A stretch of DNA of 64,000 nucleotides, from NCBI GenBank assembly GCA_964016885.1, contig CAXHJY010000359.1, positions 1 to 64,000 on the forward strand, given 5' to 3'. Below, piece by piece: positions 118 to 64,000 of this stretch. Numbering within the stretch: position 1 is the first letter of the stretch; each line of letters begins with the position of its first letter. The position numbers and the translations under genes are program-made. The notes beneath the pieces are model-generated. The model was not told the origin of the DNA and made no database searches. It saw only the letters and a program-made list of their open reading frames with translations. The DNA is from Eledone cirrhosa. Lineage: Eukaryota.

Positions 118-807
118 TTACAAATTAAGGATAATATTGCTAAAAAATTTTTTTATATCCTAGAGAAAAACTTCCCGCCAAACCAAATACCATCAAATCT
201 TAAATAGGTCTACAGTTAAATTCTCATACTCAACAACAAATAACATAAAACAAAATATAAGTGCCTATAATGCATATAAATGTAAGAAAACCATAAGTAT
301 ACCACCAATACATCAAACTAACCATAATATCTCCTCAAATACAGAATTAACGAAAGGTTGTAACTGTAGAAACAAAGCAAACTGCCCATTAAAAGGTAAT
401 TGTCTTGTTAACAACAGTCTATAAATGTAATGTTAAAACTAAAGATTCTATTTGCTCATATATAGGAGCTACTTCTAACAATTTTAAGACAAGGTTTAAT
501 ACCCACAAGCATAGTTTTAAAAATGCCGCACTGGCTAATACAACATCTCTAGCAGAAAAAATCAATAGTTATAAAAATAAGAATATAGAATGATTTGACC
601 TGGAGTGTGCTCAAAAGAGCCACCCCTTATCAAAATAATAGAAATGAATGTAGATTATGTTCCCAAGAACTATTTGAAATAATGAAATCTAAGGATATCC
701 TATTAAATAAACGACAGGAATTAATTATATCGTGTAATCATAAACTAAAAAAACATTTAAATATTATAAACCTAATTAATAACATTATTTTAGAAATTAA
801 TATATAA
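118..807 (+). mobile_element. Penelope-like retroelement (Neptune-type) 3' fragment: RT thumb/linker, Cys-rich linker and GIY-YIG endonuclease, frameshifted
   Basis: Stitched frames read IKDNIAKKFFYILEKNFPP / HQILNRSTVKFSYS / GCNCRNKANCPLKGNC / VYKC..SYIGATSNNFKTRFNTHKHSF / TWSVLKRATPY..CRLC..E...LLNKRQELIISCNH. This is the typical C-terminal GIY-YIG layout of Penelope-like elements. Broken by frameshifts and a stop at 591-593. Confidence 0.85.
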
Positions 808-1239: not shown

Positions 1240-1370
1240 ATTTTATATATTATATATATATATATTATATATATATATTATATATATATTATATATAGAT
1301 ATTATATATATATATATATTATATATATATTATATATTATATATATATTATATATATATATTATATATAT

Positions 1371-1404
<34 letters not shown>

Positions 1405-1429
1405 ATATATATTATATATATATTATATA

Positions 1430-1480
<51 letters not shown>

Positions 1481-1546
1481 ATATATATATATTATATATT
1501 ATATATATATATATTATATATATTTATATATATTATATATATATAT

Positions 1547-1579
<33 letters not shown>

Positions 1580-2420
1580 ATATATTATATATATATATTA
1601 TATTATATTATATATATATTATATATATATATATTATATATTATATATTATATATATTATATATATATATATTATATATATTATATATATTATATATATA
1701 TATATAATTATATTATATATATATATATATTATATATATTATATATATTATATATATATAATATATTTATATATATATATATATTATATATATATATTAT
1801 ATATATTATATATATATTATATATATATATATTATATATATATATATTATATATATATATATATTATATATATATTATATATTATATATATATATATATT
1901 ATATATATATATATATTATATATATATATATTATATATATATATATATTATATATATATATATATTATATATATATATATTATATATATATATATATTAT
2001 ATATATATATATTATATATATATATATATTATATATATATATATATTATATATATATATATATATAATATATATATATATATTATATATATATATATATA
2101 ATATATATATATATATTATATATATATATATATAATATATATATATATATTATATATATATTATATATAGATATATTATATATATATATATATAATATAT
2201 ATATATTATATATATATATATTATATATATATATTATATATATATATATTATATATATATATATTATATATAGATATATTATATTATATATATTATATAT
2301 ATATATATTATATATATATATATTATATATAGATATATTATATTATATATAGATATATTATATTATATATATATATATTTATATATATATATATTTATAT
2401 ATATAATATTTATATATATT

Positions 2421-2456
<36 letters not shown>

Positions 2457-2728
2457 ATATATATATAATATATATATATAATATATATATATTATATATA
2501 TATATTATATATATATATATATTATATATATATATTATATATATATATTATATATATATATTATATATATATATTATATATATTATATATATATATTATA
2601 TATATATTATATATATATATATTATATATATATATATATTATATATATATATTATATATATATTATATATATATATATTATATATATTATATATTATATA
2701 TATTATATATATTATATATTATATATAT

Positions 2729-2762
<34 letters not shown>

Positions 2763-3330
2763 ATATTATATATATATATATATATATTATATATTATATA
2801 TTATATATATTATATATATTATATATATTATATATATATATATATTATATATATATATATTATATATATATATATTATATATTATATATATTATATATAT
2901 ATATATATTATATATATATATATTATATATATATATATTATATATTATATATATTATATATATTATATATATATATATATTATATATATTATATATATAT
3001 ATATATTATATATATATATATTATATATATATATATTATATATATATATATTATATATTATATATATTATATATATATATTATATATATATATATTATAT
3101 ATATATATATTATATATATATATATATTATATATATTATATATATATTATATATATTATATATATTATATATATATATATATTATATATATTATATATAT
3201 TATATATATTATATATATTATATTATATATATTATATATATATATATTATATATATATATTATATATATATATATTATATATATATATATTATATATATA
3301 TATATTATATATATTATATATATATATATT

Positions 3331-3364
<34 letters not shown>

Positions 3365-3406
3365 ATATTATATATATATATATTATATATATATATATTA
3401 TATATA

Positions 3407-3465
<59 letters not shown>

Positions 3466-6400
3466 ATTATATAGTATATATATTATATATATATATTATA
3501 TATATATATATTATATATTATATATATTATATATTATATATATATATATTATATATATATATATTATATATATATATATATATTATATATATATATATTA
3601 TATATTATATATATTATATATATATATTATATATATATATTATATATATATATATTATATATATATATTATATATATATATTATATATATATATTATATA
3701 TATATATTATATATATATATATTATATATATATATATTATATATATATTATATATATATATATTATATATATATATATTATATATATATATATTATATAT
3801 ATATATATTATATATATATATATTATATATATATATATTATATATATATATATTATATATATATATATTATATTAATATATATATATATTATATTATTAT
3901 ATATATATATTATATATATATATTATATTATTATATATTATATATATATATTATATTATATATTATATATATATATTATATTATTATATATTATATATAT
4001 ATATTATATTATTATATATTATATATATATATTATATTATTATATATTATATATATATATTATATTATTATATATTATATATATATATTATATTATTATA
4101 TATTATATATATATATTATATATATATATAATATATAATAATATATTATATTATTATATATTATATATATATATTATATATATATATTATATTATTATAT
4201 ATTATATTATTATATATTATATATATATATTATATATATATATATTATATATATATATTATATTATTATATATTATATATATATTATTATATATATATAT
4301 ATTATATATATATTATATTATTATATATTATATATATATATTATATTATATATTATATATATATATTATATTATATATTATATATATATATTATATTATT
4401 ATATATTATATATATATATTATATTATTATATATTATATATATATATTATATTATTATATATTATATATATATATTATATTATTATGTTATATATATATA
4501 TTATATTATATATTATATATATATTATATTATTATATATTATATATATATTATATTATTATATATTATATATATATATTATATTATTATATATTATATAT
4601 ATATATTATATTATTATATATTATATATATATATTATATTATTATATATTATATATATATATTATATATATTATATATATATATTATATTATATATTATA
4701 TATATATATTATATTATTATATATTATATATATATATTATATATATTATATATATATATTATATTATATATTATATATATATATTATATTATTATATATT
4801 ATATATATATATTATATTATATATTATATATATATATTATATTATATATTATATATATATATTATATTATTATATATTATATATATATATTATATTATAT
4901 ATTATATATATATATTATATTATTATATATTATATATATATATTATATTATTATATATTATATATATATATTATATTATTATATATTATATATATATATT
5001 ATATTATTATATATTATATATATATATTATATTATTATATATTATATATATATTATATTATATATTATATATATTTATTATATTATTATATATTATATAT
5101 ATTTATTATATTATTATATATTATATATATATATTATATTATTATATATTATATATATATATTATATTATTATATATTATATATATATATTATATTATTA
5201 TATATTATATATATATATTATATTATTATATATTATATATATATATTATATTATTATATATTATATATATATATTATATTATTATATATTATATATATAT
5301 TATATTATATATATATATTATATTATTATATATTATATATATATATTATATTATTATATATTATATATATATATTATATATATATATTATATTATTATAT
5401 ATTATATATATATATTATATTATATATTATATATATATATTATATTATATTATATATATATATTATATATATATATTATATTATATATATTATATATATA
5501 TATTATATTATTATATATTATATTATTATATATTATATATATATATTATATTATTATATATTATATATATATATTATATTATATATTTATATATATATTA
5601 TATTATATATTATATATATATATTATATTATTATATATTATATATATATATTATATTATTATATATTATATATATTATATTATTATATATTATATATATT
5701 TATTATATTATTATATATATATATATTATATTATTATATATTATATATATATTATATTATTATATATTATATATATTATATTATTATATATTATATATAT
5801 TATATTATTATATATTATATATATTATATTATTATATTATTATATATATATTATATATATATATTATATTATATATATATATATATATTATATTATTATA
5901 TATTATATTATTATATATTATATATATATATTATATTATATATTATATATATATATTATATTATATATTATATATATATATTATATTATTATATATTATA
6001 TATTATATTATTATATATTATATATATATATTATATTATTATATATTATATATATATATTATATTATTATATATTATATATATATATTATATTATATATA
6101 TATATTATATTATATATTATATATATATTATATTATTATATATATATATATTATATATTATATATATTATATATATATATATTATATATATATTATATAT
6201 ATTATATATATTTATATATATTATATATATATATATATATATTATATATATTTATATATATTTATATATATTTATATATATTTATATATATATTATATAT
6301 ATTTATATATATATTATATATATTTATATATATATTATATATATTATTTATATATATTATTTATATATATTATTTATATATATTATTTATATATATTATT

Positions 6401-9400
6401 TATATATATTATTTATATATTATTTATTATATATTATTTATATATATTATTTATATATATTATTTATATATATTATTTATATATATTATTTATATATATA
6501 TTATTTATATATATTTATATATATATTTATATATATATTATTTATATATATTTATATATATTATTTATATATATATTATTTATATATATTATTTATATAT
6601 ATTATTTATATATATATTATTTATATATATTATTTATATATATTATTTATATATATATTATTTATATATATTATTTATATATATATTATTTATATATATT
6701 ATTTTTATATATATTTGTATATATATTATTTTTATATATATTTATATATATATTTTTTATATATATTATTTATATATATATTATTTTTATATATATTATT
6801 TATATATATATTATTTATATATATTATTTATATATATTATTTATATATATATTATTTATATATATATTATTTATATATATATTATTTATATATATATTAT
6901 TTATATATATATTATTTATATATATATTATTTATATATATATTATTTATATATATATTATTTATATATATATTATTTATATTATTATTTATATATATTAT
7001 TTATATATATATTATTTATATATATATTATTTATATATATATTATTTATATATATATTATTTATATATATTTATATATATATATTTATATATATATTATT
7101 TATATATATTTATATATATTATTTTATATATATTATTATATATATATTATTTATATATATTATTTATATATATATTTATATATATTTATATATATTATTT
7201 ATATATATTATTTATATATATTATTTATATATATTATTTATATATATTATTTATATATATTATTTATATATATTATTTATATATATTATTTATATATATT
7301 ATTTTATATATATTATTTATATATATTATTTATATATATTTATATATATATTTATATATATATTTTTTATATATATTATTTATATATATATTATTTTTAT
7401 ATATATTATTTATATATATATTATTTATATATATATTTATATATATATTATTTATATATATTATTTATATATATATTATTTATATATATATTATTTATAT
7501 ATATTATTTATATATATATTATTTATATATATATTATTTATATATATATTATTTATATATATATTATTTATATATATATTATTTATATATATATTATTTA
7601 TATATATATTATTATATATATATTATTTATATATATATTATTTATATATATATTATTTATATATATATTATTTATATATATATTATTTATATATATATTA
7701 TTTATATATATATTATTTATATATATATTATTTATATATATATTATTTATATATATATTATTTATATATATATTATTTATATATATATTATTTATATATA
7801 TATTATTATATATATATTATTATATATATATTATTTATATATATATTATGTATATATATATTATGTATATATATATTATTTATATATATATTATGTTATA
7901 TATATATTATTTATATATATATTATGTATATATATATATTATGTATATATATATATTATGTTATATATATATTATGTATATATATATATTATGTATATAT
8001 ATATTATGTATATATATATATTATGTATATATATATATTATGTATATATATATATTATGTATATATATATATTATGTATATATATATATTATGTATATAT
8101 ATATATTATGTATATATATATTTATGTATATATATATATTATGTATATATATATATTATGTATATATATATTATGTATATTATATATTATGTATATATAT
8201 ATATTATGTATATATATATATTATGTATATATATATATTATGTATATATATATATTATGTATATATATATATTATGTATATATATATATTATTATATATA
8301 TTATATTATGTATATATATATATTATGTATATATATATATTATGTATATATATATATTATGTATATATATATATTATGTATATATATATATTATGTATAT
8401 ATATATATTATGTATATATATATTATGTATATATATATTATGTATATATATATATTATGTATATATATATATTATGTTATATATATATTATGTATTATAT
8501 ATATTATGTATATATATATATTATGTATATATATATATTATGTATATATATATATTATGTATATATATATATTATGTATATATATATATTGTGTATATAT
8601 ATATATTATGTATATATATATATTGTTTATATATATATTGTGTATATATATATATTGTATATATATATATTGTGTATATATATATATTGTGTATATATAT
8701 ATATTGTGTATATATATATATTGTGTATATATATATATTGTGTATATATATATATTGTGTATATATATATATTGTGTATATATATATATTGTGTATATAT
8801 ATATATTGTGTATATATATATATTGTGTATATATATATATTGTGTATATATATATATTGTGTATATATATACACAATATATATATACACAATATATATAT
8901 TACACAATATATATATATTGTGTATATATATATTGTGTATATATATATATTGTGTATATATATATATTGTGTATATATATATATTGTGTATATATATATA
9001 TTGTGTATATATATATATTGTGTATATATATATATTATGTATATATATATATTATGTATATATATATATTATGTATATATATATATTATGTATATATATA
9101 TATTATGTATATATATATATTATGTATATATATATATTATGTATATATATATATTATGTATATATATATATTATGTATATATATATATTATGTATATATA
9201 TATATTATGTATATATATATATTATGTATATATATATATTATGTATATATATATATTATGTATATATATATATTATGTATATATATATATTATGTATATA
9301 TATATATTATGTATATATATATATTATGTATATATATATATTATGTATATATATATATTATGTATATATATATATTATGTATATTATATATTATGTATAT

Positions 9401-12145
9401 ATATATATTATGTATATATATATATTATGTATATATATATATTATGTATATATATATATTATGTATATATATATATTATGTATATATATATATATGTATA
9501 TATATATATTATGTATATTATATATTATGTATATATATATTATGTATATATATATATATTATGTATATATATATATATTATGTATATATATATATTATGT
9601 ATATATATATATTATGTATATATATATATTATGTATATATATATATTATGTATATATATATATTATGTATATATATATATTATGTATATATATATATTAT
9701 GTATATATATATATTATGTATATATATATTATGTATATATATATTATGTATATATATATTATGTATATATATATATGTATATATATATATGTATATATAT
9801 ATGTATATATATATGTATATATATAGTTAATATATGTATATATATATGTATATATATATGTATATATATATGTATATAAATATGTATATAAATATGTATA
9901 TAAATATGTATATAAATATGTATATAAATATGTATATAAATATGTATATAAATATGTATATAAATATGTATATAAATATGTATATAATATGTATATTAAT
10001 ATGTATTAATATGTATATAATATGTATATAATATGTATATAATTATGTATATAATATGTATATAATATGTTATATAATATGTATATAATATGTATATAAT
10101 ATGTATATAATATTATATATTATATTATTATATATTATATTATTATATATTATATTATTATATATTATATATATATTATATATATATTATTATATATATA
10201 TATTATATTATATTATATATATATTATATTATATATATATTATATTATATATATTATATTATATATTATATTTATATTATATATATTATATTATATATAT
10301 ATTATATTATATATATTATATTATATATATATATATTATATTATATTATATATATATTATATTATATATATTATATATATTATTTATATTATATTATATA
10401 TATATTATATTATAATATATATTATATTATATATATATATATATTATAATTTTATATATTTATTTTATATATATATTATTATATTATATATTATTATATA
10501 TATATTATTATATTATATATTATTATATTATATATTATTATATTATATATTATTATATATTATATTATTATATATTATATTATTATATATTATATTATTA
10601 TATATTATATTATTATATATTATATTATTATATATTATATTATTATATATTATATTATTATATTATTATATATTATATTATTATATATTATATTATTATA
10701 TATTATATTATTATATATTATATTATTATATATTATATTATTATATATTATATTATTATATATATATATTATATATTATATTATTATATATTATATTATT
10801 ATATTATATATATATTATTATATATATATTATATTATATATATATTATATTATTATATATTATATATATATTATATTATTATATATTATATATATATTAT
10901 ATTATTATATATTATATATATATTATATTATTATATATTATATATATATTATATTATTATATATTATATATATATTATATTATTATATATTATATATATA
11001 TTATATTATTATATATTATATATATATTATATTATTATATATTATATATATATTATATTATTATATATTATATATATATTATAATATTATATATTATATA
11101 TATATATTATATTATATATTATATATATGATTATATTATATATTATATATATGTATTATATTATATATTATATATATGTATTATATTATATATTATATAT
11201 ATGTATTATATTATATATTATATATATGTATTATATTATATATTATATATATATATTATATATTATATATATATATTATATTATTATTATATTATTATAT
11301 ATTATATATATATATTATTATATATTATTATATATTATTATATATATATTATTATATATTATTATATATTATTATATTATTATATATTATATATATATAT
11401 TATTATATATTATTATATTATTATATATTATATATATATATTATTATATATTATTATATTATTATATATTATATATATATATTATTATATATTATTATAT
11501 TATTATATATTATATATATATATTATTATATATTATTATATTATTATATATTATATATATATATTATTATATATTATTATATTATTATATATTATATATA
11601 TATATTATTATATATTATTATATTATTATATTATATATATATATATTATTATATATTATTATATTATTATATATTATATATATATATTATTATATATTAT
11701 TATATTATTATATATTATATATATATTATTATATATTATTATATTATTATATTATATATATATATTATTATATATTATTATATTATTATATATTATATAT
11801 ATATATTATTATATATTATTATATTATTATATATTATATATATATATTATTATATATTATTATATTATTATATATTATATATATATATTATTATATATTA
11901 TTATATTATTATATATTATATATATATATTATTATATATTATTATATTATTATATATTATATATATATATTATTATATATTATTATATTATTATATATTA
12001 TATATATATATTATTATATATTATTATATTATTATATATTATATATATATATTATTATATATTATTATATTATTATATATTATATATATATATTATTATA
12101 TATTATTATATTATTATATATTATATATATATTATATTATTATAG
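1240..12145. repeat. Giant (TA)n-derived compound microsatellite array of about 11 kb with successive sub-domains
   Basis: Almost pure A/T. Units shift from (TA)nT to TATTATTTATA (about 6.2-7.8 kb), TATTATG(TA)n (about 7.85-9.8 kb), TATTGTG(TA)n (about 8.6-9.0 kb), TATATAAATATG (about 9.87-9.98 kb) and TATTATTATA (10-12.1 kb). Confidence 0.98.
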
Positions 12146-13004
12146 AGATTATATATATCGGGTTGCTGACCAATAACTTCTCAATGTAAAGGCGCTAACA
12201 TTTTCGAACAGAGGCAACTCACAAGATATTATTGATACAATTTAGATATTTTGTACTAAAAATAAAATATGATCAATTAGAGCAATGAAACGTTACTTGT
12301 GTGTGTATGTATGCACACGCACGCACGTGTGTGTCCCATTGTCATGGCTAAATTGACTGGTAGTAATTCGTTACTTTGACCTGCACCAATATATTTCATA
12401 GCTGTATGAGTTTTCTAGTATTTTTGCAAGCTTAATTCTATTCGGGTTAAAAATATCAATCTACCGAGGTTAGTTAAAAATTCAACAGAACCTCCTAGCT
12501 CCTTTACGGCTTCCCTTGCTTCACATTTATCTTATGCTTAGTTTGCCAATTTCATTAAAAAAAAAATGTATTATATTCACTTCTGTTTTGTTTTTCTCGA
12601 CTGTAAGAAGTCTTAGATACTCCTCTAGCTAGCTCTATAAGGACGTTTGAATGGATTAAATACTAGAAATTTAAAGATCTTCTTCGGCTAATTTCAAAGT
12701 GTGTACAATCCCTCAACCAACTCTTTATGATAAATGCATGCTCTCTTCTCACCAAATTTTAAATTATCTAGAAATCATTTTTCTATTTGTAGCAATCCAA
12801 GGAAATGGTTAATTTGACTGAAATCCCGCAGCACAAGTTGGCCAGATAAAAAAGAAGAAAAAAAATGGAAGCTCATGAAACGTGGAATCATAATTTTCGA
12901 AATAGAATGGAATATAGAATTGACTTGAAACACTGCTTCAAAGGGCGTCTGGACTGGAGATATGGCACATTAATTTTACCTGTATCTAGGCTAACTGCTC
13001 TGGG

Positions 13005-16327: not shown

Positions 16328-17239
16328 TACGAGGTGTCAAAAGTTCCAGGACTGATGTCACAAAAGATTTATTTCAAACCTAAACTTCACACTAAGAGGT
16401 TTTTCCTTCAAAGTAATCCCCCTGGATCTGGAGTCTAATGCACTTTTCCATCCTTTTCTGCCACGTTTGCATGCACTCCTGGAAGGATTCTTCCGGGATC
16501 CTCCGCAGTTCCGTCGTCACGGCCTTTTTGATGTCGTCTGCATCTTCAAAACGGGTCCCCTCCGGGTCGTACTCGAAGATCCATGACTCATCACCGGTGA
16601 TGACTGTCCCTAGCAAGTCTGGTTCGGTTTCAAGACGCTCGAGGATGTCCTGGCACACTTGCATGCGTCGACCCTTCTGGTCATCGTTCAGCAGTTCTGG
16701 CACCATCTTCGCGCAGACTTTTCGCATGTCCAAATCTTCAGTGAGAATCTTCCAGACGCTGTCTCGATTCATGCCCAGCTCATTTACCATCAGTCGAACA
16801 GTCAGCCGACGATCGCTACGCACCATCTGCCTGACGCGCTCAACGTTGACCTCAGTGCTGGTTGTTGAGGACCTTCCGCTCCAGGGGTCATCTTCCACGT
16901 CCTCGCGTCCTTCTTTAAACCTCTTGTACCACTCAAAAACACGTGAGCGTGACATCGTCTCATCTCCAGACACTTGCTGCAGCGGAGTTTTCCCCAACCG
17001 TACCAGAAACTTCAAGTTTGTTCGTTGCTCTGTGCTCATTGCTTGACGACCTGAAACAGATGTATATAAAATTATGAAGAAAAAAGTTTGATCGCTGCAG
17101 AGAGCTAAGATAAGTTACATGTTACATACTCCAGGGGGGGGGGGGGGTACTTTGAAGGAGAAAACTCTTAGTGTGAAGTTTGGGTTTGAAATAAATCTTT
17201 TGTGACATCAGTCCTGGAACTTTTCTGACACACCTCGTA
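16328..17239 (-). mobile_element. Mariner (Tc1/mariner) DNA transposon, internally deleted, with about 90-bp terminal inverted repeats and TA flanks
   Basis: Ends TATACGAGGTG... and ...CACCTCGTATA. The inverted repeat continues through GATGTCACAAAAGATTTATTTCAAACC..ACTAAGAG.. to about 16422 and 17145. Contains a transposase ORF. Confidence 0.95.
16392..17039 (-). CDS. Truncated mariner transposase (215 aa): HTH DNA-binding region kept, catalytic core deleted
   Basis: MSTEQRTNLKFLVRLGKT..VFEWYKRFKEGREDVEDD..DRRLTVR..KVCAKMVPELL..ITGDESWIFEYDPE joined in frame to GTRFEDADDIKKAV..WQKRMEKCI..GDYFEG. The HDNA and YSPDLAP.D motifs are missing. Confidence 0.85.
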   Translation of the reverse strand: MSTEQRTNLKFLVRLGKTPLQQVSGDETMSRSRVFEWYKRFKEGREDVEDDPWSGRSSTTSTEVNVERVRQMVRSDRRLTVRLMVNELGMNRDSVWKILTEDLDMRKVCAKMVPELLNDDQKGRRMQVCQDILERLETEPDLLGTVITGDESWIFEYDPEGTRFEDADDIKKAVTTELRRIPEESFQECMQTWQKRMEKCIRLQIQGDYFEGKTS

Positions 17240-22399: not shown

Positions 22400-24560
22400 G
22401 TCAGCCCAATATCTCGTCTGCTACAATAGAGGAAAGAAACATAGGTCGTTTCATGCAGATACAGTATCTTATGGGTCCCTGCACGATTAGCCGTGTCCAG
22501 CGCTTCAAGATTACTCTGGGCAGGCGACACATGCGACAAGGTGTAGAACAGCCTCGGAAAGTAATATTGCTGCAAAAGATGTAACCTTTGTCTGGGTCCC
22601 AGTGGAGCTCTGCATATTTTATCGATACAGTGACACCTTCTCCACTGAAACACCGATCTTGGAGTCCGGCCATGGGCCAATATTGACCCCTAAGTAAGAG
22701 CATTTATCTGCAGGTTCGATTCTCGAGAGCTGAGTTCCATCGATCTCTGGACATCGATCTCTGGAGGAGGATCCGTGTTGACCAAGAAAGGTTTCTCCCA
22801 CGATTGTACCGAAAACTAGGCGCATTTAGATATTCATCGCTGGCCACACTTCACGGCAGAACGACACGTATCTGTCAACGAGATGTTGCAGCTCCATTGG
22901 AGAGCCGACAACTAGCGCATTATCGTCCCCATACACCAAGGTCGACAACCCCACATCTTTAACCAGTCAGCCACAGTTGGACAGAACGTCCATCAGCGAG
23001 TCCGTGGCTATGTTAAAAAGAAGAGGCGAGAGTGTATCTCTCTGCCGGACTCTACGCTTGATATCAATGAGTCTGCTCGTTTCCGCTCCGACCGAGAATT
23101 TTGTACCGCATCCTTCATAAAGACCTTTCACGACACCGATCATATGTTCGTGAAAGTCTTCTCATGGCTGCAAGCTCGAGTGATAGCAGAACCGATTGGA
23201 AGACCTTGGCCAGGTCGATGAAGGCAACGTCCAACCACCGGATCCTCAATCACGCTTCCATGCTGCGTTTGAGAAGCTGTTGCAGCAAGAACACGGTCTC
23301 GCTGCAACCGTCAGCACTTACGAATCCCCTTTCGGAAGAATTCAGAGGGGTTACCTGAAACATCCTATTGGAGAGTAACTTGGTGTATAGGCGATAAAGG
23401 ATAGAGCATATCGTCAGGGGTCTCCAATTAGATAGGTCATGCGGATCATCCATCTTCTTAGGATTCAGGACAGACCTGCCGAGTTTCAAGCCATCGGATA
23501 GCTTCCAAATCCCGCAACATGCAGTTAAAGGTTCGCAAGAATTGCAGGGTCGTTGGCGCGAACCTGTCGGTGTGATTTCGTCGGTCCCCGGGGCAGAGGT
23601 TGATCTCTTACACCTCCGTACCACAACAACCTCAAACGAGGCGAATGGTTGCAAAAGCGGTGCGTTATCCGCCAGTTTCGTTCCAGGATAAGCACCGAGA
23701 TCGACCTCCAGTCCCGGGTGGGAAAACTTGCCCGAATAAAAACCGACTCGATGTCGGCAACTGGGAAAGGACACCCCCATTGGTTTTCGTCCACTAAAAT
23801 CACAAGGAGCTTCTTCCTATTACGATCGTACAAATTCTGGTAGCGAGCATAAAGCGCCCTACTTCCTTTACTTTTACTACCAGAATTCCTGTAGGGCCGT
23901 TTCGGTCTTCTCCTTACGGTCTTAATACGTCTCCTACGTGAGCGTGCCTGCTCCAACCATCCTCTAACACACTGCGCAACCGCGCTCCGGCCCTCGTCCG
24001 TGACCTCATCACATAATGTGGTGAGGCACTCGTCAAAAGCAGCGCACCATCGAGAGCGACTCGCCTCCACTGCAGCGCCGAGCGAATTCCTCTAGGCGGC
24101 ATCGTAAGATGCCGGAGAACCAGTTCCACTCACCTGGCTAGGCCGCCGCTCGCCAGCCGACTTACTTACGCGGGTAGGGGACTAATTCCTGCACTTCTTT
24201 TTATTCAAATCGCTCCTTTTCGAAATAATTTGCTGAACGGATTTTCCAGGCAGAAACGGAGCGATACCTGCGTGGATGTGACCCACCGCAAGGAGTTCTT
24301 TCTTCACTTCACGCATCGCCACCTCCTCTTCAGGCCAACACGAGTATCGGGTAGCGCAGCCGTCTCCCAAGGGGCGGCTGCCGCACGAGTTGCACACTAA
24401 CGCTCGACTTCCGTAGCGTGCCTTGCGATCCTCCGCCGATTGGAAATCTATTCGGAACGCACATACGAATGGTAATTGTCGGTAGAGCTACATCAATACT
24501 TTGCGGCTGGCCAGGATACCCCATCTTATTCGTTCTAGTCAATGGTTTAACGGCCCCCCC
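22400..24560 (-). mobile_element. R2-like RLE non-LTR retrotransposon, copy A (5' end, Myb domain, RT), pseudogenised
   Basis: Myb-like WPEEEVAM..IAPFLPGKSVQQIISKR. RT motifs SAPGTDEI, NWRPLTICSILYRLY..ERGF..GCSE, AFIDLAKVF, LSPLLFNI, VYGDD, YLGVNIGPW, RAPLGPRQRLHLLQQYYFPRL. Confidence 0.85.
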
Positions 24561-31959: not shown

Positions 31960-34160
31960 AGCAAAAATATTGCTGCAAAACATGTAATCTTTACCGGGGT
32001 TTCAGTGGAGCCCTGCATATTTTATCAATACTGTGACACCTGCTCCACCTAAACACTCATCTTGGAGTTCGACCATGGGCTGACTTTGACCCTTAAGAGC
32101 ATTTTTCTGCAGGTTCGATTCTCGAGAGCTGAATCCCATCGATCTCTGGAGGAGGATCCGTGTTGACCAAGAAAGATTTACCCCACGATTTTACCGAAAA
32201 CTAGGCGCATTTAGAGATATTCACCGCTAGCCACACTTCACGGTAGAACGACACGTATCTGTCAACGAGATGTTGCAGCTGCATTGTCGTCCCCATACGC
32301 CAAGCTCGACAACCCCACATCTTTAACCAGTAAGCCACAGTTGGACAGAACGTCCATCAACGGGTCCGTGGCTAAGTTAAAGAGAAGGGGTTAGTGTATC
32401 TCCCTGCCGGACTCCACGCTTCATATCAATGAGTCTGCTCGTTTCCGCTCCGACCGAGAATTTTGTACCACATCCTTCATAAAGACCTTTCACGACATCG
32501 ATCATATGCTCGTGAAAGTCTTCTCATGGCTGCAAACTCGAGTGATAGCAGAACCGATTGGAACGCCTTGGCCAGGTCGATGAAGGCAACCGCCGAATCC
32601 TCAATCACGCTTCCATGCTACGTTTGAGAAGCTGTCGCAGCAAGAACATGGTCTCGCTGTAACCGTCAACACTTACTAATCCCCTTTGGGAAGAATTCAG
32701 AGGGGTTACCTGAAACATCCTATTGGAGAGTAACCTGGTGTATAGGCGATAAAGGATAGAGCATATCGTCAGGGGTCTCCAATTAGATAGGTCACCGGAT
32801 CATCCATCTTCTTAGGATTCAGGACAGACCTGCCGAGTTTCAAGACATCAGGTAACTTCCAACCACGCAACATGCAGTTAAAGGTTCACAAGAATTGCAG
32901 GGTCGAGGGCGCGGACCTATGGGGCTGTGATTCCGTCGGTCCCTGGGGCAGAAGTTGAGTTCATACACCTTCGTGTCACATTCGAGGTGAATGGACGCAA
33001 AGGCGGTGCGTTATCCACCACTTCCATTGCAGGATAAGCACCTCCGGTCCCGGGTGGGAAAACCTGCCCGAATAAAAACCGACTCGATGTCGGAAATAGG
33101 TAAAGGACACCCCCCATTGGTTTTCATCCACTAAAATCACTAAAAGGAGCTTCTTCCTATTACGATCATACACATTCTGGTAGCGAGCATAAAGCGGCCT
33201 ACTTCCTTTACTTTTACTACCAGAAATCCCGTAGGGCCGTTTCGGTCTTCTCCTCACGGTTTTAATACGTTTCCTACGTGAGCGTGCGTGCTCCAACCAT
33301 CCTCTTACACACTTCGTGATCGCTCTCCAACCCTCGTCCGTGATCGCTCTCCAACCCTCGTCCGTGATCTCATCTCCTACTGTGGTGAGACACTCGTCAA
33401 AAGCAGCGGATCATCGAGAGCGACCCGCCTCCACTGCAGCGCCGAACGAATTTCTCCAGGTGGCATTGGAGGATGCCGGAGAACCAGTTCCACGCACCTG
33501 GCTATGCGGCCGCTCGCCAGCCGACTTACTTACGCGGGTAGGGTACTGGTTACTGCATTTCTTTTTATTGAAATCGCTCCTTTTCCAACTAATTTGCTGA
33601 ACGGATTTTCCAGGCAGAAACGGAGTTGTGGATGCGACGGCACCCCGCCACAAGGATCTCCCTCCTTTTCAAGAAGTATCACCGCAATTCCCACACTTAT
33701 AGTTGAGGCTTGAGGCAGCGGAATTGTCGTCCTATCTTCTGCCTGTACATCGGCCAGAGTGGACTCTGAGCGAATGAAGGTGTTCACACTCCCTACCACA
33801 TTTGGAACATTTAAAAATCAGCCTTCGCCAGACAAGTTGTGCGGACACCATAAACAAAACATTACGTTGTTGCACGGAATCTCCAGGCAATCCTCCTCCA
33901 CTAGGGGCCTGTAGACCTCTTCAACACGACCCACGGTGTCGCGAGCCCATTGCGAGGGAAGCTGTTTGCCCTTCAAAACCAAGACGTGTGTACCGTAGTC
34001 AAAGGTAGATCTATCCGGAACGAACTTACGAATGGTAATTGTTGGTAGTCAGTCCTCGGAGATGATTACCGCTCGCCACGAGCGGCCATTACAGTAAGTC
34101 GCGGCTGGCCAGGAGACTCCCATCTCATTCCTCCTAGTCAATGGTTTAACGGCCCCAAAA
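31960..34160 (-). mobile_element. R2-like retrotransposon, copy B, with N-terminal zinc fingers, Myb remnant and RT
   Basis: Collinear with 22560-24560. Carries FKCSKCGRECEHLHSLRVHSGRC (about 33740-33815) and YKCGNCG (about 33680-33705) zinc-finger segments and LPGKSVQQISWKR. Confidence 0.85.
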
Positions 34161-42544: not shown

Positions 42545-44090
42545 ACAGAGAGAAACCAGGGCCATAGAAAGGCAAAGGAGACTGCCTCGGTACACTGCAA
42601 GATTGGGCTCAGTTTTTTCTATAAAAAAGGCTCGTTGACCGAGGATCCTGAAGAGATAAGTGAGATTCTGAATGAACAGTACAAGTGTTTTCACACACCC
42701 AAATAAGCACATTCAAATAAAAAAGCCAGGGGAATTCTTTGATGCCACAGCACTACACAGAGAAATGGCGCCCATCAACCACGTAGATATAACGGAGGAA
42801 GATGTTATATCAGCCATAGAATGAGAGCAAGCTCAGCTGCTGGACCTGAACATACAAGCGTGCCTTAGCAAGATCACTGAAGATCCTCTTCAGAAGTTCT
42901 CTGGCTAGCGGTAAACTACCCAGAGAACTAAAAAGGCATAATATGCCCTATCCATAAAGGAAGAAGCAGAACAGAGGTAACAAATACTCTCGCCTAACTA
43001 TAGGTGACTTAAAAGACAGAGGCCAGACTGTTGCAGCCGACAGGCCCTCTCAAAGGAAACATCAATAACGAGTGGGGTTCCCCCAGCATACTGTCTTCGG
43101 ACCACTACTGTTTTTGGTGTCTTTCAGACATGCATACTGTAGTAGAACATCCCTCACTAGCTATGTTGATGACACAAAAGTAGCACAGGCAATCAAGAAC
43201 CCAGCTGATGCTACTCATTTACAAGATCTGGATGCCATATACAAAAGAACTGAGGACAACAAAATGCAATTTAATGCTGGAAAATTTCAAGCACTACGAT
43301 ATCAACCTGCTAACACGACAGTACAACAAAGCTACATCGGACCAGGAGGGATCGAAATCCCCATATCGAAATTGATACAGATATAGACATGAGCGACGAT
43401 GTATCGTTTCATTCACACATGAAAATTGCGACAATGTGCAGACGACTCGCTTGTTGAATCTTACAGGCTTTCAAGACAAGAGACCAAGAAACCATGTTGG
43501 TACTATGGAGGACAATTGTCCTAAGCCGACTGGACTATTGCTCCCAACTGTGGTCACCCCATAGTGTCAAACTAACCAGAGCTTGAAGCAATCCAACGAA
43601 GCTACACCAAGAGGATTTTCATTATGAAGGAGTGGGAGAGGCTAAAATAACTAAAATTCTACTCCTTGGAATGAAGACGGCAGAGGTATGCAGTGATACA
43701 CATATGGAAGATCCTTGAGGGACTAGCACCGAATTTTGGCATTCAGAGATTGACCAACCCTCGAACAGGACGTCACTGTGTGGTGTCAAAGGTTCCGTCT
43801 TTCACATTTAGAGTAAGGAGCAATATCACAATAGTCTGGGGTTCAAAGGCCCTCAACTCTTTAATAAGCTGCGAATAAAATTGAGACAGCTGCATACTGT
43901 TGAAGTGAGTTTTCAAGAAACATATTGATACTTTGCTATCCAGGATCCCAGATGAACCCACAGCACGGAATGAAGGTAACGTAAAAGCAGCAGAAGCGAA
44001 ATCCCTCCCACATCAATTCCCAGCCAACGCAAGCTGGATATAGAAAGTGAAGCAACAAGGATGGTGCCCCAGCATTGCTGGAACAGGTAA
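42545..44090 (+). mobile_element. CR1-group LINE (RT and 3' end), degraded
   Basis: LTEDPEEISEILNEQY, SAAGP, ICPIHKG, GFPQHTVFGPLLFL, SYVDDTKV, MQFNAGKF, RLDYCSQLWSP, IHIWKILEGLAPN. Absent from the paralogous site at about 28020-28060. Confidence 0.85.
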
Positions 44091-46320: not shown

Positions 46321-47821
46321 TAATTCTATGTTTGATTTGACGTCTATTAAGAAATTTAACAGTAAATTTTGTGTACAACTATTTTAAGTAAAAATTCTTG
46401 AATCGTATAGCTACTATAATCCTTTCCATTTCCGCTTATTTGAAATTACGACATTGAAACGATGAATCGATAAATGTAAAATTAAACCTTTGCTTAAATT
46501 TTACGTAGAACTATTTTATTGTTAGTTCTGTTTATCTTGTTGCTGTCTATCCCCCAAGTCATTTCTGATCTGACAGACGGAGGATTAAAGATTTATCCGG
46601 TCATTTTTTTTTCAGAAATTGTATCTAAAAGTACATCCGTATTTTTCTTATAAGATAAGCTTATTTCTCACAACTCGCAACTTGCCATTATCACTAGCAG
46701 GTTCAGCTCCTTCGAATAAGTTCTTTTGTCTACTCATTAAGTTCTCCATTAAACAATGTCTAATTTTCACTTTTATATAATTTAACTACAGTTCAATAAT
46801 CAAAACACGCACGATCGAATTGTACAGCTGAAAGATCGTTAGATCGAACCAAGGAAAGTTTCCCCTTTTCTTTTTTTCTCGCTATTGTTTCTAGCTCAAT
46901 AACAACGCACCGCCCGGCCCAAGAATGAAACCCACTATATTATGATAGTGAACCCAACATTCCTAACCAATAGGACACTTTTTTCAAAGTATGACATCTG
47001 TTTGCAATGAGTATCATTTTCCTTTTAGACTTAATATGGATATAAAATTTAATATGGATATAAAATTTAAAGTTAAAATGCAGTTACATCCTGGAAGAGT
47101 CATTTTAGTTACGAGTTTTAACTCGCATCGTGAGATGCTACGGTATGTATGGAATACCATGTTTGCGTTTGTCGTTGCATGGCGGTGTATGAGTTCCACT
47201 CTAATCAGTCTTTTAATGACTGAAATAACTCTTCCACAATGTAATTTCTTTAGTTTTAAGTCTCAGATACTCATTTGCCAAAAAAGTGCACCTAAAGTTA
47301 AATGAAACGGCGTAAAAAAAAAATAGTGAAGTAAGGATCAACAGTGCAGAAAAAATTAAAAGATCCCAAAATAAAGGGTAGATTTTCATTTTAAAATGAA
47401 AATTGTCCCTTTATTTTGGACCCTTTTTTTTATCGTTTTTTTTTTCGATTTTTCGTTTTTTTTTCGGTAAAACATTACCAGTAACGCACTCCCCACCCCT
47501 CAAAAAAAATTGTTGGCCTTCTGTCTAAATCAGAAACCATATATCTTGTTTATTGTTGTAGAACTATATCCTTATTTCATGTTTTATCAAATTTTATAAC
47601 CTCCTTGCTCCCAAATCTTCGTTTTATGTAACTTTGTTTTTCCAACGTCATATCTATTGTAACCCTTGTTTATTTACAGTATTCTATGTACAATCATTTG
47701 AGGTTAATAAAGAAATCATTAATTCATTATTTATATTATTGCTGATTCCCCACTTCAACCCTTAACATTTTTTTTTACTTGTTATAACCATCCTCTAACA
47801 TTATTTATTTGTTTTCACTGT

Positions 47822-52534: not shown

Positions 52535-53670
52535 TCTTCGACAGGATGAGAATGTCAGATATGATCGACCCCATAAATGAAAGAACCAGAACTGAATACA
52601 TCAGAGTAAAGAAAATATGGTCACAAGAAAGAACTATCGGCGTATAACAAATACATTGCCCACAATACTTATGCTGTGCCAATCCTAACGCCAACATTTG
52701 GTCTGCTGAACGGGTCATTGCAAGAACTGAGATGGATGTAAGAACTCGCAAGCTTCTCACTGTTACTGGAAACTTTAACATCAATGGCGATGTTGATAGG
52801 CTATACTTCTCATGCAAGGAAGGTGGCCGGGGTCTAACATCCATATTAACATCATACGAGACCCGGACCGTAACATTGAAGCAACATCTTCAACAGAAGA
52901 AAAAGGTCAGCAACCATTAAAGCACAACTGGCCCGATATTGTACAGGCCAGTTGTGCTTTAATTTGGTTGCAGTTTTTATTTTCAGATTCCACCAATATT
53001 CCTTAGTGTCATCTATCTCAACATATTCCTCCTCGTTTGTTTTTAATTGGGTTTTCCTAAGTGCGTTCCAGATGGTTCTCGCTATCACATCGAGTCTCAT
53101 AGGAATGAGACGACATTCTTTCGCAATTGGTAACAATATAACGATTGGTAACGATCTTTATTTTACATGGCCATCAGTCGACAATAAATGTAGGCTATCC
53201 TCTTTTGGGTAGCAGATATTTGGTAGGGATTTCTTATTCCTGTATTGCATAGATATCCTTGAAGGTGGGATATCATAAACTGGTCAGAACTCTCTGCCAG
53301 GCTTTTTGAATGATTTATGGTATGTTTTTCGTCTCAGATACCCATGCACAACTTTCTCTGTAAATTGTTCCATTTTAGTGTTTGGGATCACACAATGAAA
53401 ACGTGATCTTTTGTAGAGATCAGCTGCCCATTTGATGTCAATATTGCAAGAAAAAGTACAAGAGATCTGCGGACCATTAATGAAGAGTTTGCAGATCTAG
53501 TATCTAAGGTGCACCTTCAGCTTCATACCCATCATTATTGGAGATACAGGTTATATACAAACCCATTTGGACCAACGTATAACTGAACTAGGATTTGTGG
53601 ATAAAGAGCGCAGTTCCCTAATTCATAGACTACAAATGACTGCGATAGCTGGCACCTTCAAAATTTGTCA
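52535..53670 (+). mobile_element. R4/Dong-like RLE non-LTR retrotransposon 3' fragment with an internal inversion
   Basis: Plus strand: MDVRTRKLLT..DVDRLYFSCKEGGRGL, KHNWPDIV, then VEISCPFDVNI..LQMTAIAGTFKI. The segment 52946-53380 reads on minus: HGY..RLDVIARTIWNAL..EYWWNLKIKTATKLKHNWP. Confidence 0.8.
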
Positions 53671-55239: not shown

Positions 55240-55281
<42 letters not shown>

Positions 55282-55285
<4 letters not shown>

Positions 55286-55360
55286 AATATAGAAGAGATT
55301 CTACAGGACTAGAACTGTTTCATTCGTGAGAAATCATCAGTAATCTCTTCTATATTAAAA
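55282..55360 (-). ncRNA. Type I hammerhead ribozyme candidate (copy 1 of tandem pair)
   Basis: Minus strand: ttttaatatagaagagatta-CTGATGA-tttctcacgaat-GAAA-cag-ttctagtc-ctg-TA^-gaatctcttctatattaaaa. 19-bp stem I with an A:G mismatch next to the core; GTA cleavage triplet (cut 55302/55301). Confidence 0.75.
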
Positions 55361-55539
55361 CTTTTATACTCTATGTATTGAGTATTGGAATAACATACTA
55401 TATATATATATATTATATATATATAATATATATATATATATAGTAAGTTATTTATTATATATATATAGTAAGTTGAATCGGAGGTAACCACAGTAAGTAA
55501 GGTACTCAATACATAGAGTATAAGTTTTAAATATAGATG

Positions 55540-55590
55540 AGATTCTACAGGACTAGAACTATTTCATTCTTGAGAAATCATCAGGAATCT
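55540..55590 (-). ncRNA. Type I hammerhead ribozyme candidate (copy 2 of tandem pair)
   Basis: Minus strand: agattc-CTGATGA-tttctcaagaat-GAAA-tag-ttctagtc-ctg-TA^-gaatct. Perfect 6-bp stem I; cut 55546/55545. Confidence 0.8.
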
Positions 55591-55739
55591 GACTGTCCAA
55601 ATAAATGTGGTGGTATTTATATCTTTTCTTTCAATCAATGACCTTCACTCATCCCACTCCACACCCTCTCCTACCACCAGAAAAGATATACCACCAGATA
55701 TAATACCAGCATCTATATTAAAACTTATATATAGGAGAG

Positions 55740-55986
55740 AGAGTGACAATAAGTCAGATTTGCAGCTTTTTATGAAACTTTATTGCATCTTACAATTGTT
55801 TTGATATCGATTAGCTTGGGTTTGATCAGGCGACCGGATCCCGTCTCTTAATCTACACTTCTTCGTGTAGATTAAGAGTCGGGATCCGACCACCTGATCA
55901 ACCCAAGCTGATCGATATCAAAACAATTGTAATATACAATAAAGTTTCATAAAAAGCTGCAAATTTAACTTCTCATTGTAACTCTA
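55740..55986. repeat. Long imperfect palindrome (arms about 120 bp, spacer TTCTTC at 55859-55864)
   Basis: ..TTTGCAGCTTTTTATGAAACTTTATTG..CTCTTAATCTACAC | GTGTAGATTAAGAG..CAATAAAGTTTCATAAAAAGCTGCAAA. Confidence 0.95.
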
Positions 55987-56052
55987 TATATTGACTCTGC
56001 AAACTACAGCCGCCTTAAATTTGGAGCACAATTCTACGAGAGACGGACCCCG

Positions 56053-56091
<39 letters not shown>

Positions 56092-56236
56092 TTTATATAT
56101 ATATATATAAAATGTATGTATGTATGTATGTATGTAATATATATATGTATTTGCATGCATATTTGATATGCAATTGGAGTTGTAGACGCATGGAAAAGAT
56201 GGCAGAGAAAGCGTAGACTCTATTTTATTCTAGTGA

Positions 56237-56385
56237 TCTATATATATAAAACTGAAGTTGTCTGTGTCCTCATTTTTGCAAAGTCTATATAAATCCACAT
56301 TTCTACTCCGATTGACTTCAAACTTCCATTTATATATTCCTTGTGGTCTAAAGATATTAACTGCCGCATTTATTTTTTTCAATTT
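56237..56385 (+). mobile_element. Possible non-autonomous Helitron 5' end
   Basis: A|TCTATATATATAAAACTGAAGTTGTCTGTG..CCGATTGACTTCAAACTT, the TC-start pattern typical of invertebrate non-autonomous Helitrons. No 3' hairpin/CTRR found downstream. Confidence 0.4.
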
Positions 56386-56634
56386 CTGTTGTTAAAGGGT
56401 GTTAGGCGCCGGTTATCCATCTCCGTCGCGCTCTTATATCTGTCTGAATGCCTGACTGTCTGCATAACGTCATTGCTGACATTATCTTCGCTACATTCGC
56501 GCCACGCACGCGCACATATATATATATATATATACATATATACTTATATATACATATACACACATATATACAAACACATATACACATATATAGATACAGT
56601 CTTTCTCTGTATATATATATGTGTGTGTGTGTAT

Positions 56635-57127
56635 GTACGTCCTTATCAGATAAAATAAGATGATGCATGACATACCCTGACATAGTCGATGGTTAAGATC
56701 CAGTCCTGGTAGTAAGATGACACCAGTCCTGGTAGTGAGTAAGATATGACAACTCAATATTTATATACCTTAAGATTGATACATGAAAAAACCTACATAT
56801 AATACAGAGGGTGCGTGTAAGAAAGCTTAAAAATACATAACAGTAATTTACATAACTGTTAAAGATTCAAATAATTATTGAAGAAAAAGGAAAGTCTTTT
56901 TTCTTTCCTTTTTCTTCAATAATTATTTGAATCTTTAACAGTTATGTAAATTACTGTTATGTATTTTTAAGCTTTCTTACACGCACCCTCTGTATTATAT
57001 GTAGGTTTTTTCATGTATCAATCTTAAGGTATATAAATATTGAGTTGTCATATCTTACTCACTACCAGGACTGGATCTTAACCATCGACTGTCGTGCATC
57101 ATCTTATTTTATCTGATGAGGACGTAC
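56635..57127. repeat. Long near-perfect palindrome (arms 56635-56894 and 56903-57127, 8-nt spacer)
   Basis: The inner 170 bp or so are reverse-complement identical by eye. The left arm carries small extra internal duplications (CCAGTCCTGGTAGT twice, TGACATA twice). Confidence 0.97.
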
Positions 57128-57171
57128 TGTTGATGTTAGCTCAGTACCTCTGAAATATGTATAATAAAATA
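57105..57171 (+). ncRNA. Type I hammerhead ribozyme candidate with minimal stem III (Penelope-type)
   Basis: tattttat-CTGATGA-ggacgtactg-ttgatgttagct-cagtacctct-GAAA-tatgta-TA^-ataaaata. 8-bp stem I, 10-bp stem II with one mismatch, near-palindromic stem III, ATA triplet (cut 57163/57164). Confidence 0.85.
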
Positions 57172-57458
57172 TACTTGATCACAATGAAGTACTATTTTGT
57201 TAATATTTTGAATGAATGTTAATAACTCCGGAAACCAAATCTGTTGAGTGCTGCCAATCTATTGTAAAACTAATTCTTTGATTTATTCATTAACCTTGTT
57301 TAACCTTTGTGTGTGTGAATAAGGGTTGACGGACCCAGCATATTTATCAATGCCAGTACCGGTTGTATCTCGGCGCACTCAATGGGCAATGTAAGATACA
57401 TTACCAGAGTATACAGTTATTTTCCTCAACACAACACACGTAAAACGGGTGCCTATAA

Positions 57459-57578
57459 GGTTCCCGGACTCGAGTTTCTGCAGCACTAATGCAGCAGTAA
57501 GGTGCACTGCACCATCTGTCTGCATATATTATGCAACAATGCACAATCGGCTTATGCGGCTTCATCAGCGGTATCACC
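57459..57578 (-). ncRNA. Hammerhead-like core with an 83-nt multi-hairpin insert in domain II
   Basis: Minus strand: ccg-CTGATGA (57568-57562) ...83 nt... GAAAC-TCGA-GTC^-cgg (57478-57464). The insert holds four short inverted repeats. Stem I has only 3 contiguous G-C pairs. Confidence 0.5.
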
Positions 57579-57949
57579 TAATCAATAACCAATCGATCGA
57601 CAGAACCCAAACACCGGCCCATGCCGGTCATGAGTGCTTGTGATAACCGACACGGTAAAGCGATGAGCAACTGGCAACCGATAGGACTCTCTCTCTCTCT
57701 CTCTCAACTAGCCACTGATTTACACATTTTACGTGGGGACGGGAAGCTAAAAAGAATCAATCTTTTAGTTCCTGTCAGAAGCTCTCAGCCAACGTCTCAC
57801 ACACAAATTATCAAGGGGTGAAAAGATGGCTATTAGAAATAGCAGTTCACATTGATATAAAATAGAATGGTAGCATTCGGTTCATGTCTCCAAGCCCCAG
57901 GGCTAGAGGAAAGCGATGGTAACAATGGTGGTGCCAAGAACCTTTAACG

Positions 57950-64000
<6,051 letters not shown>

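Follow-up and report, generated by a model that had tools for sequence, protein, structure and literature searches.

A 64,000-nucleotide stretch of an Eledone cirrhosa contig (CAXHJY010000359.1, assembly GCA_964016885.1; hereafter the window) carries a hammerhead ribozyme motif at one end of a long palindrome whose other arm holds part of the same motif in antisense, which raises the question of what kind of sequence this is, how its two copies came to lie head-to-head and whether the ribozyme could act there. The locus is, in our judgement, quite probably a solo, non-coding remnant of an EN+ Penelope-like element (PLE), made up of two 5'-truncated copies of the pLTR/3' end placed head-to-head by a (TA)/(TG) microsatellite. 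We infer this ancestry from the sequence anatomy and the folding energies, which are themselves direct results. The hammerhead would be the family's own pLTR ribozyme, predicted to be nearly silent at this locus because there is no second intact ribozyme for it to pair with and because the upstream pLTR folds over its core.

Searched on both strands with a type I hammerhead descriptor, the 64 kb window has exactly one match (57105-57171, plus strand), with a helix I of 8 bp; no complete minus-strand hammerhead is found in the window by this descriptor. The match has the CUGANGA / GAAA / NUH core and arranges helices I-III in type I topology. In a control of 100 dinucleotide shuffles of 12-58 kb, matches occur in 8/100 shuffles when helix I is set to at least 4 bp and in 0/100 when it is set to at least 6 or at least 8 bp. 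Helix I (57105-57112/57164-57171) is composed of 8 bp, all A-U, and leads into the core at 57113-57119, which is followed by a helix II of 10 bp (57120-57129/57142-57151) that closes with a G.U pair, contains one C.C mismatch and has a loop of 12 nt. The GAA lies at 57152-57154, and helix III (57155-57162) consists of AUAUGUAU, 8 nt that are self-complementary. AUA serves as the cleavage triplet, with the predicted cut after A57163 splitting an AATAAA at 57163-57168; the overlap of this hexamer with the hammerhead, reported in an earlier note made from the sequence, is confirmed. In the best register, the extra base after A9 is absent.

The same note had called the hammerhead well-formed. The match is single and not expected by chance (0/100 shuffles), but that description is too favourable given the G.U closing pair, the C.C mismatch, the unstable helix III, the AUA triplet and an active fold that is not the MFE. 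The isolated 67-mer has a z of -0.42 and a ddG of +3.0 kcal/mol from the MFE to the active fold, and intramolecular closure of helix III costs energy (-8.5 to -3.9/-5.0 kcal/mol), helix III being unstable or weak in the monomer. As a self-complementary 8-mer is the hallmark of the dimer-dependent metazoan type, helix III is modelled as belonging to it; the active dimer reaches -21.6 kcal/mol and is likewise not the dimer MFE (-28.8). With respect to Rfam, the whole window gives 0 matches at the gathering threshold, and the 50 matches obtained at E <= 10 over 55500-58000 include 0 hammerhead families; most are miRNA models that fall on palindromes or microsatellites, and every match scores far under its gathering threshold. 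Rfam hammerhead models describe canonical helix sizes, so that the lack of an Rfam match lowers the case for "canonical" and not for "hammerhead-like".

A self-BLAST of 55700-57700 against the window (E reported as 0.0) delimits a palindrome of 493 bp at 56635-57127, in agreement with the near-perfect palindrome of about 490 bp that had been noticed before. It consists of a left arm of 260 nt (56635-56894, minus strand), an unpaired centre of 8 nt (56895-56902, TCTTTTTT), which forms the head-to-head junction, and a right arm of 225 nt (56903-57127, plus strand), AT-rich and non-coding, that carries the hammerhead-sense strand. We read the right arm as a pLTR-like copy and the left arm as an inverted, 5'-truncated one, with its 3' end at 56635 inside helix II of the hammerhead. 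The left arm contains the reverse complement of 57105-57127, including 8/10 nt of the 5' strand of helix II, so that its opening with an inverted stem I, a CTGATAA core and half of stem II is as the earlier note had described it. This half-hammerhead (56635-56657, minus strand) is dead: it comprises the 5' strand of helix I, a core with G8>A (CTGATAA on the minus strand, first base 56649) and 8 nt of helix II, and it ends without GAAA, helix III or a cleavage site, the microsatellite coming next. The two cores thus defined lie on opposite strands, 464 bp apart (57113 on the plus and 56649 on the minus strand). On the right, sequence belonging to the ribozyme extends one-sidedly beyond the palindrome for at least 44 nt (57128-57171, plus strand), as an analogue of the PLE "tail"; its right boundary is at 57171 or beyond, possibly at 57200, where a second hairpin ends, or at 57307, next to a weak target-site duplication (TSD) candidate. 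The left flank and the right continuation share no similarity.

The complementarity of the arms is perfect over the innermost 172 bp, and the arms differ at four places, two transitions (56644 and 56668) and two stretches present on the left only, all carried by the left arm. The 12-nt stretch (56672-56683, plus strand) copies the neighbouring TGACAT and looks like a templated insertion, and the 23-nt stretch (56700-56722, plus strand) is a tandem copy of the sequence after it with two small internal deletions, that is, a templated duplication. Of the 225 aligned positions, the outermost 53 contain all four differences (4/4; P ~0.003). The earlier suggestion that the insertion is young finds support in there being only 2 substitutions per 225 bp between the arms, but it holds loosely, since palindromes can be homogenised.

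Several features of the arms and their flanks point to a PLE. The right arm carries a TATA box (TATATAAATA, 57030-57039) followed by a TCACT initiator-like motif (57059-57063), together spanning 57030-57063 on the plus strand with a predicted start at about A57061; a mirror TATA box and TCACT motif (56734-56767, minus strand) is directed leftwards, away from the right arm. In a post hoc test, 28/5000 shuffles of the arm give a TATA box with TCACT and 99/5000 one with TCABT, and in a whole-window shuffle control there is no enrichment of such pairs (10 observed versus 22.6 expected). We used the arm-only shuffles because the whole-window control is inflated by AT satellites. Promoter activity of these motifs is putative and read from their presence. 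At 225-260 nt the arms are near the size of the 181-218 bp pLTRs described in the available text of PMC3846280. Furthermore, an (AT)n/(TG)n microsatellite (56516-56634) directly abuts the left arm and is the probable target.

We find no TSD at 56635/57127 and no convincing one for the element. A possible but weak candidate at 57308-57320 (plus strand) matches the 13 nt left of the element at 12/13 positions; there are 10 equally good loci in 44.2 kb, and its P of ~0.045 per 200 bp is post hoc. In addition, an ATG within helix III opens a frame of 21 codons (57157-57222, plus strand). In PLEs, the pLTR and tail reportedly take in 12-22 codons from the start of the ORF, and the frame could be the start of the parent's ORF, with chance a possible explanation as well. 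Further points against the PLE reading are that the left copy ends inside the ribozyme, whereas RT start sites of the anole element lie downstream of its ribozyme cut, that helices I and II are longer than in the 56 published motifs of PMC4209133 and that the extension of at least 44 nt exceeds the canonical tail of 30-40 bp.

Searches for relatives of the locus gave little. BLASTN finds no sibling copies of the arms in the window, nhmmer gave just the query itself and the left arm, 56895-57300 has no homologues in phages and plasmids, an exact 21-mer has no match in GTDB genomes, and a scan of the PMC8557442 supplement for short ribozyme motifs returned no matching family. At the far left of the window, we observe a frameshifted PLE endonuclease remnant (164-807, plus strand), which in three frames encodes a Zn-finger-like linker CxC..CP..C, a GIY-YIG match (E = 0.0018) and the motif C..C..LLNKR..C.H. 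It corresponds to the C-terminal part of an EN+ Penelope-like ORF, and its presence in the window indicates that this genome contains EN+ PLEs. The remnant is followed by a very long AT satellite, and no intact hammerhead lies downstream of it. The linker points to the Neptune/Nematis type. An exhaustive protein search with 589-804 gives 315 relatives at E <= 0.001, and a word-indexed search gives 0/51 candidates; on rescanning 13 of those relatives in Pfam, we obtain one GIY-YIG, one unrelated RING-variant protein and no RT, so that the clade call for the remnant rests on motifs. Among GTDB contigs, 55 stretches were matched by a single-protein query for PLE endonuclease relatives and 0 were confirmed, and there were none in phages. 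The remnant is not shown to be the parent of the palindrome, as 1-1250 of the window compared with the arm scores within the shuffle range (50/200 and 163/200 shuffles score equally). The assignment as a non-autonomous Penelope-type insertion, already made in the earlier note, is therefore upheld in part: the hammerhead type, the opposite-strand cores, the one-sided extension, the TATA and TCACT motifs and the microsatellite flank favour it, and no parent has been located in the window or in the prokaryote, phage and plasmid collections.

The surroundings are dominated by decayed transposons. One HTH fragment of mariner-like type and three weak fragments of RVT_1, none of which reaches the Pfam cut-offs, occupy 16395-17114 (-), 23253-23816 (-), 32608-32799 (-) and 43069-43383 (+), and a pair of 1.7-kb repeats (22563-24261 and 31966-33625) is 86% identical. 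AT-rich satellites of several kilobases extend over ~1250-12150 and 57950-64000, with a GC content below 1% at 2-8 kb and 10-12 kb; the part at 58-64 kb has 12-14% GC and a GC skew close to 1.0. An older, MITE-like palindrome (55740-55985) lies about 650 bp to the left of the element, with arms of ~122 bp that are ~86-89% identical, a short loop and no hammerhead. Short imperfect palindromes occur at 47358-47427 and at 52910-52971, the latter at the junction of decayed-coding-like stretches. A 72-nt direct repeat (55275-55346 / 55519-55590; 89% identity, 244 bp apart) is accompanied by a related 20-mer (55349-55368/55712-55731), and a TC-starting AT-rich motif at 56236-56275 (+) presumably resembles a Helitron 5' end.

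As to how the copies came to be joined, they meet at their 5' ends when the ribozyme strand is taken as sense. Most likely, this arose by a snap-back route: the RT of the element would prime at the target, copy the 3' end of its RNA leftwards to ~56889 and then fall off; the cDNA's 3' end would snap back on a micro-palindrome of 6-9 bp around the 8-nt loop and copy itself, that copy being the left arm; and this second synthesis would slip twice and stop inside the hammerhead, so that the left copy came out shorter and an extension remained on the right side only. For a cDNA that ends at 56886-56889, folding back over the centre is predicted, with a stem of 6-9 bp (-4.5 to -7.5 kcal/mol; DNA parameters, whole fragment). 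The arm differences are consistent with the left arm being the copy made second, as each of the four looks like the derived state there: the core is broken by G8>A, a CpG with a G that is paired in the predicted fold is lost at 56668, and the extra stretches are templated repeats. Their clustering could alternatively stem from gene conversion of the inner palindrome or from a later repair event. In the available text of PMC3846280, self-priming is framed via an antisense template, and we infer that this template equates with a cDNA. The cited papers, in the parts available, term the formation of PLE inverted copies an unresolved step, for which the clustering of left-arm-only changes at the outer end provides a testable footprint.

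The same micro-duplications would also fit a different history, in which a solo pLTR or a solo hammerhead SINE-like copy came first and the left arm was added later by host fold-back replication or end-joining repair, apart from retrotransposition. The duplications near the outer junction are templated, as in polymerase-theta-type repair, of which such templated micro-duplications are typical, and the window contains three more hammerhead-free palindromes (55740-55985, 47358-47427 and 52910-52971). However, the centre of the fold-back coincides with the apparent 5' end of a pLTR-like copy, the arm is pLTR-sized, and the same geometry has repeatedly been described for PLE insertions, so we consider a host-repair origin unlikely.

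It is likewise improbable, to a slightly greater degree, that the locus is a fragment of a non-LTR retrozyme, a tandem hammerhead repeat expressed as circRNA, that inserted with an inversion. The type I hammerhead, the AT-richness and the absence of an ORF would suit a retrozyme, and the ribozyme-masking hairpins in the flanks are reminiscent of retrozyme monomers, which are highly self-paired according to the available text of PMC7229834. Moreover, retrozymes have been argued to be non-autonomous PLE derivatives (bioRxiv 10.64898/2026.07.22.740005, in the part accessible), which makes this rival a neighbour of the best explanation. A tandem unit is nevertheless absent: the sequence after the ribozyme is unlike the sequence before it (118/200 and 113/200 shuffles score equally), TRF reports no long period (period limit 500), there is one complete hammerhead only, and its helices are not the canonical 6/4 bp. 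The locus thus lacks the head-to-tail units with at least two complete hammerheads of a non-LTR retrozyme.

Returning to the pLTR ribozyme of a PLE remnant, its predicted silence stems in part from the right arm itself. An imperfect hairpin of 30 bp, predicted at 57067-57149 (plus strand), would tie up the core of the hammerhead together with the two strands of helix II, and through it the right arm disfavours the active fold: the ddG to that fold is +3 kcal/mol for the 67-mer, +16.4 for a transcript from the predicted start at 57061, ~+17 for the right arm alone and +37 for both arms. Both bases of the C.C mismatch of helix II form G-C pairs in this masking hairpin. The hairpin is plus-strand specific (z -2.9 versus -0.4/-0.6), and its z of -2.9, being equalled in 12/226 background windows, is not clearly above the local background. 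It is not the predicted fold of the minus-strand cDNA, which weakens the idea of a hairpin that stalls second-strand synthesis. A second predicted hairpin (57164-57200, plus strand) begins right after the cut site and competes for the 3' strand of helix I; it is weak (z -2.4, 8/200 shuffles).

These folds suggest, as a tentative and rather doubtful reading, that the pLTR family encodes its own anti-ribozyme and that the hammerhead is a conserved two-state switch that needs remodelling by the RT-EN protein. On the modelled folds, the first ~45 transcribed bases after the TATA/Inr start would pair with the core and the strands of helix II, and the second hairpin would hide helix I. The structured stretch would also mark where the snap-back synthesis slipped and stopped, which would make the asymmetry of the arms a record of a PLE integration intermediate. 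If true, this would offer a structural reason for the poor in vitro cleavage of PLE hammerheads and for the protein need of the anole ribozyme. A search by title and abstract start found no publication on an intrinsic anti-hammerhead hairpin in pLTRs, which is weak evidence of absence as subscription journals are mostly uncovered.

Silencing by the palindrome as a whole is a separate proposal, namely that it acts as a built-in antisense off switch of the element and as a substrate for ADAR or Dicer. The part of it that concerns the fold is borne out in silico: in a full read-through transcript over both arms the whole core is paired (unpaired probability 0.0; ddG +37 kcal/mol), and Adineta PLE copies give antisense-biased small RNAs, according to the accessible text of PMC3846280. 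The switch itself is not supported. The promoter-like motifs point outwards, so that the element's own transcripts would hold one arm each, and in the right arm alone the active fold is already disfavoured by a predicted 16-17 kcal/mol. If the left arm begins only at 56655 or 56700, a penalty of just 9-11 kcal/mol results, which means that the long duplex adds suppression only via its outermost ~20 bases. A host transcription unit was not found either: in a coding scan that compared 216/229 filtered ORFs (at least 62 aa) with Pfam, none near the element matched (0/24 between 52.4 and 57.9 kb), a scan by which small exons would be missed. Finally, one locus by itself offers no sign of selection. 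We therefore regard a designed switch as very unlikely; according to the model, long dsRNA would form only if an outside transcript crossed both arms, as a by-product of the insertion geometry, and use of the duplex by ADAR or Dicer is speculation.

That the palindrome is an assembly or long-read fold-back artefact is highly improbable. The perfect inner 172 bp would be expected of one, and inverted PLE structures are noted to trouble assemblies (PMC8557442). On the other hand, what separates the arms is a pair of transitions and two insertions that are structured and templated, not homopolymer errors, the inversion ends after 260 nt with unlike sequence on both sides, and the window is free of N bases. 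Least credible of all is a foldback/MITE DNA transposon whose TIR happens to take in part of the hammerhead, despite the MITE-like palindrome of similar scale ~650 bp leftwards (55740-55985), since the ribozyme runs seamlessly 44 nt past the right inverted-repeat end, its crossing of 57127 indicates that the repeat end is not an element end, and neither TIRs that define both ends nor a TSD at 56635/57127 are present.

In itself, the locus is routine transposon debris among repeats, and its value is that of a clean specimen. The predicted masking hairpin supplies a simple and testable explanation for the low activity of PLE hammerheads on their own; covariation in sibling copies, if it confirmed the hairpin, would interest ribozyme and retroelement specialists, and otherwise the hairpin would not. 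The locus is a new instance of a published architecture, as the head-to-head pLTR geometry is already in print.

In the available text of PMC4209133, metazoan PLE hammerheads are described as combining a long helix II with a palindromic helix III, with no detectable cleavage of the monomer for the one motif tested, and dual minimal hammerheads occur on opposite strands 100-700 bp apart. The hammerhead described here is similarly type I with a long helix II, a short palindromic helix III that implies dimer activity and AT-rich flanks, and a second core lies on the opposite strand within the same 100-700 bp. The minimal consensus given there includes an extra base H between A9 and 10.1 and a G10.1-C11.1 pair. 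Among the 56 representative motifs of Fig. S3, counted by eye from machine-read PDF text, G.U closing occurs in 8/56, an A at 17 in 5/56 and no extra base after A9 in 2/56; helix II ranges over 3-8 bp and helix I over 2-6 bp. The oddities of 57105-57171 are within this published variation, save for the longer helices I and II, and the nearest layout is the Saccoglossus kowalevskii (2) row, with no extra base after A9, an 8-bp helix II and an A at 17. The differences from the motifs of that source are a 10-bp helix II containing a C.C mismatch and a loop of 12 nt, a helix I of 8 bp that is all A-U, and a second motif that is incomplete and mutated in its core.

With respect to the insertion, PLEs are characterised by an inverted 5'-truncated copy adjoining the 5' end, a one-sided tail of 30-40 bp and microsatellite targets (PMC8557442). 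For Pen2a/Pen2_Av of Adineta vaga (PMC3846280; scheme in the legend of PMC8557442 Fig. 2), the accessible text reports pLTRs of ~200 bp in which TCACT is preceded by a TATA box 20 bp upstream, and it attributes head-to-head junctions to self-priming. The locus shares with these elements the head-to-head truncated copies of ~200 bp, the one-sided extension, a TATA box ~20 bp upstream of TCACT and a probable simple-repeat target. It differs from them, as far as they are described there, in that the repeats enclose no ORF, the extension of at least 44 nt is longer than 30-40 nt, the inverted copy ends inside the ribozyme and there is no clear TSD.

The non-LTR retrozymes, as described in the available parts of PMC7229834 and bioRxiv 10.64898/2026.07.22.740005, have in common with the locus that they are non-coding, carry a type I hammerhead and have a proposed derivation from PLE pLTRs; their head-to-tail units with at least two complete ribozymes are absent here. 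A last comparison is with PAc, the Poseidon element of Anolis carolinensis (PMC11167929, in the part accessible), which was assayed in vitro and is joined to a full ORF, whereas the present ribozyme is known from sequence and folding prediction. RT start sites of PAc lie downstream of the cut made by the ribozyme, at a distance of ~85-90 nt or more, and the source alludes to a masking structure in PAc, which its Fig. S2C on folding may already show. PAc is reported to cleave only with the protein of the element, which makes the masking hairpin more attractive as a lead, and here a competing fold is predicted. In both cases, a pLTR ribozyme does not reach its active fold unaided, at our locus according to the folding predictions.
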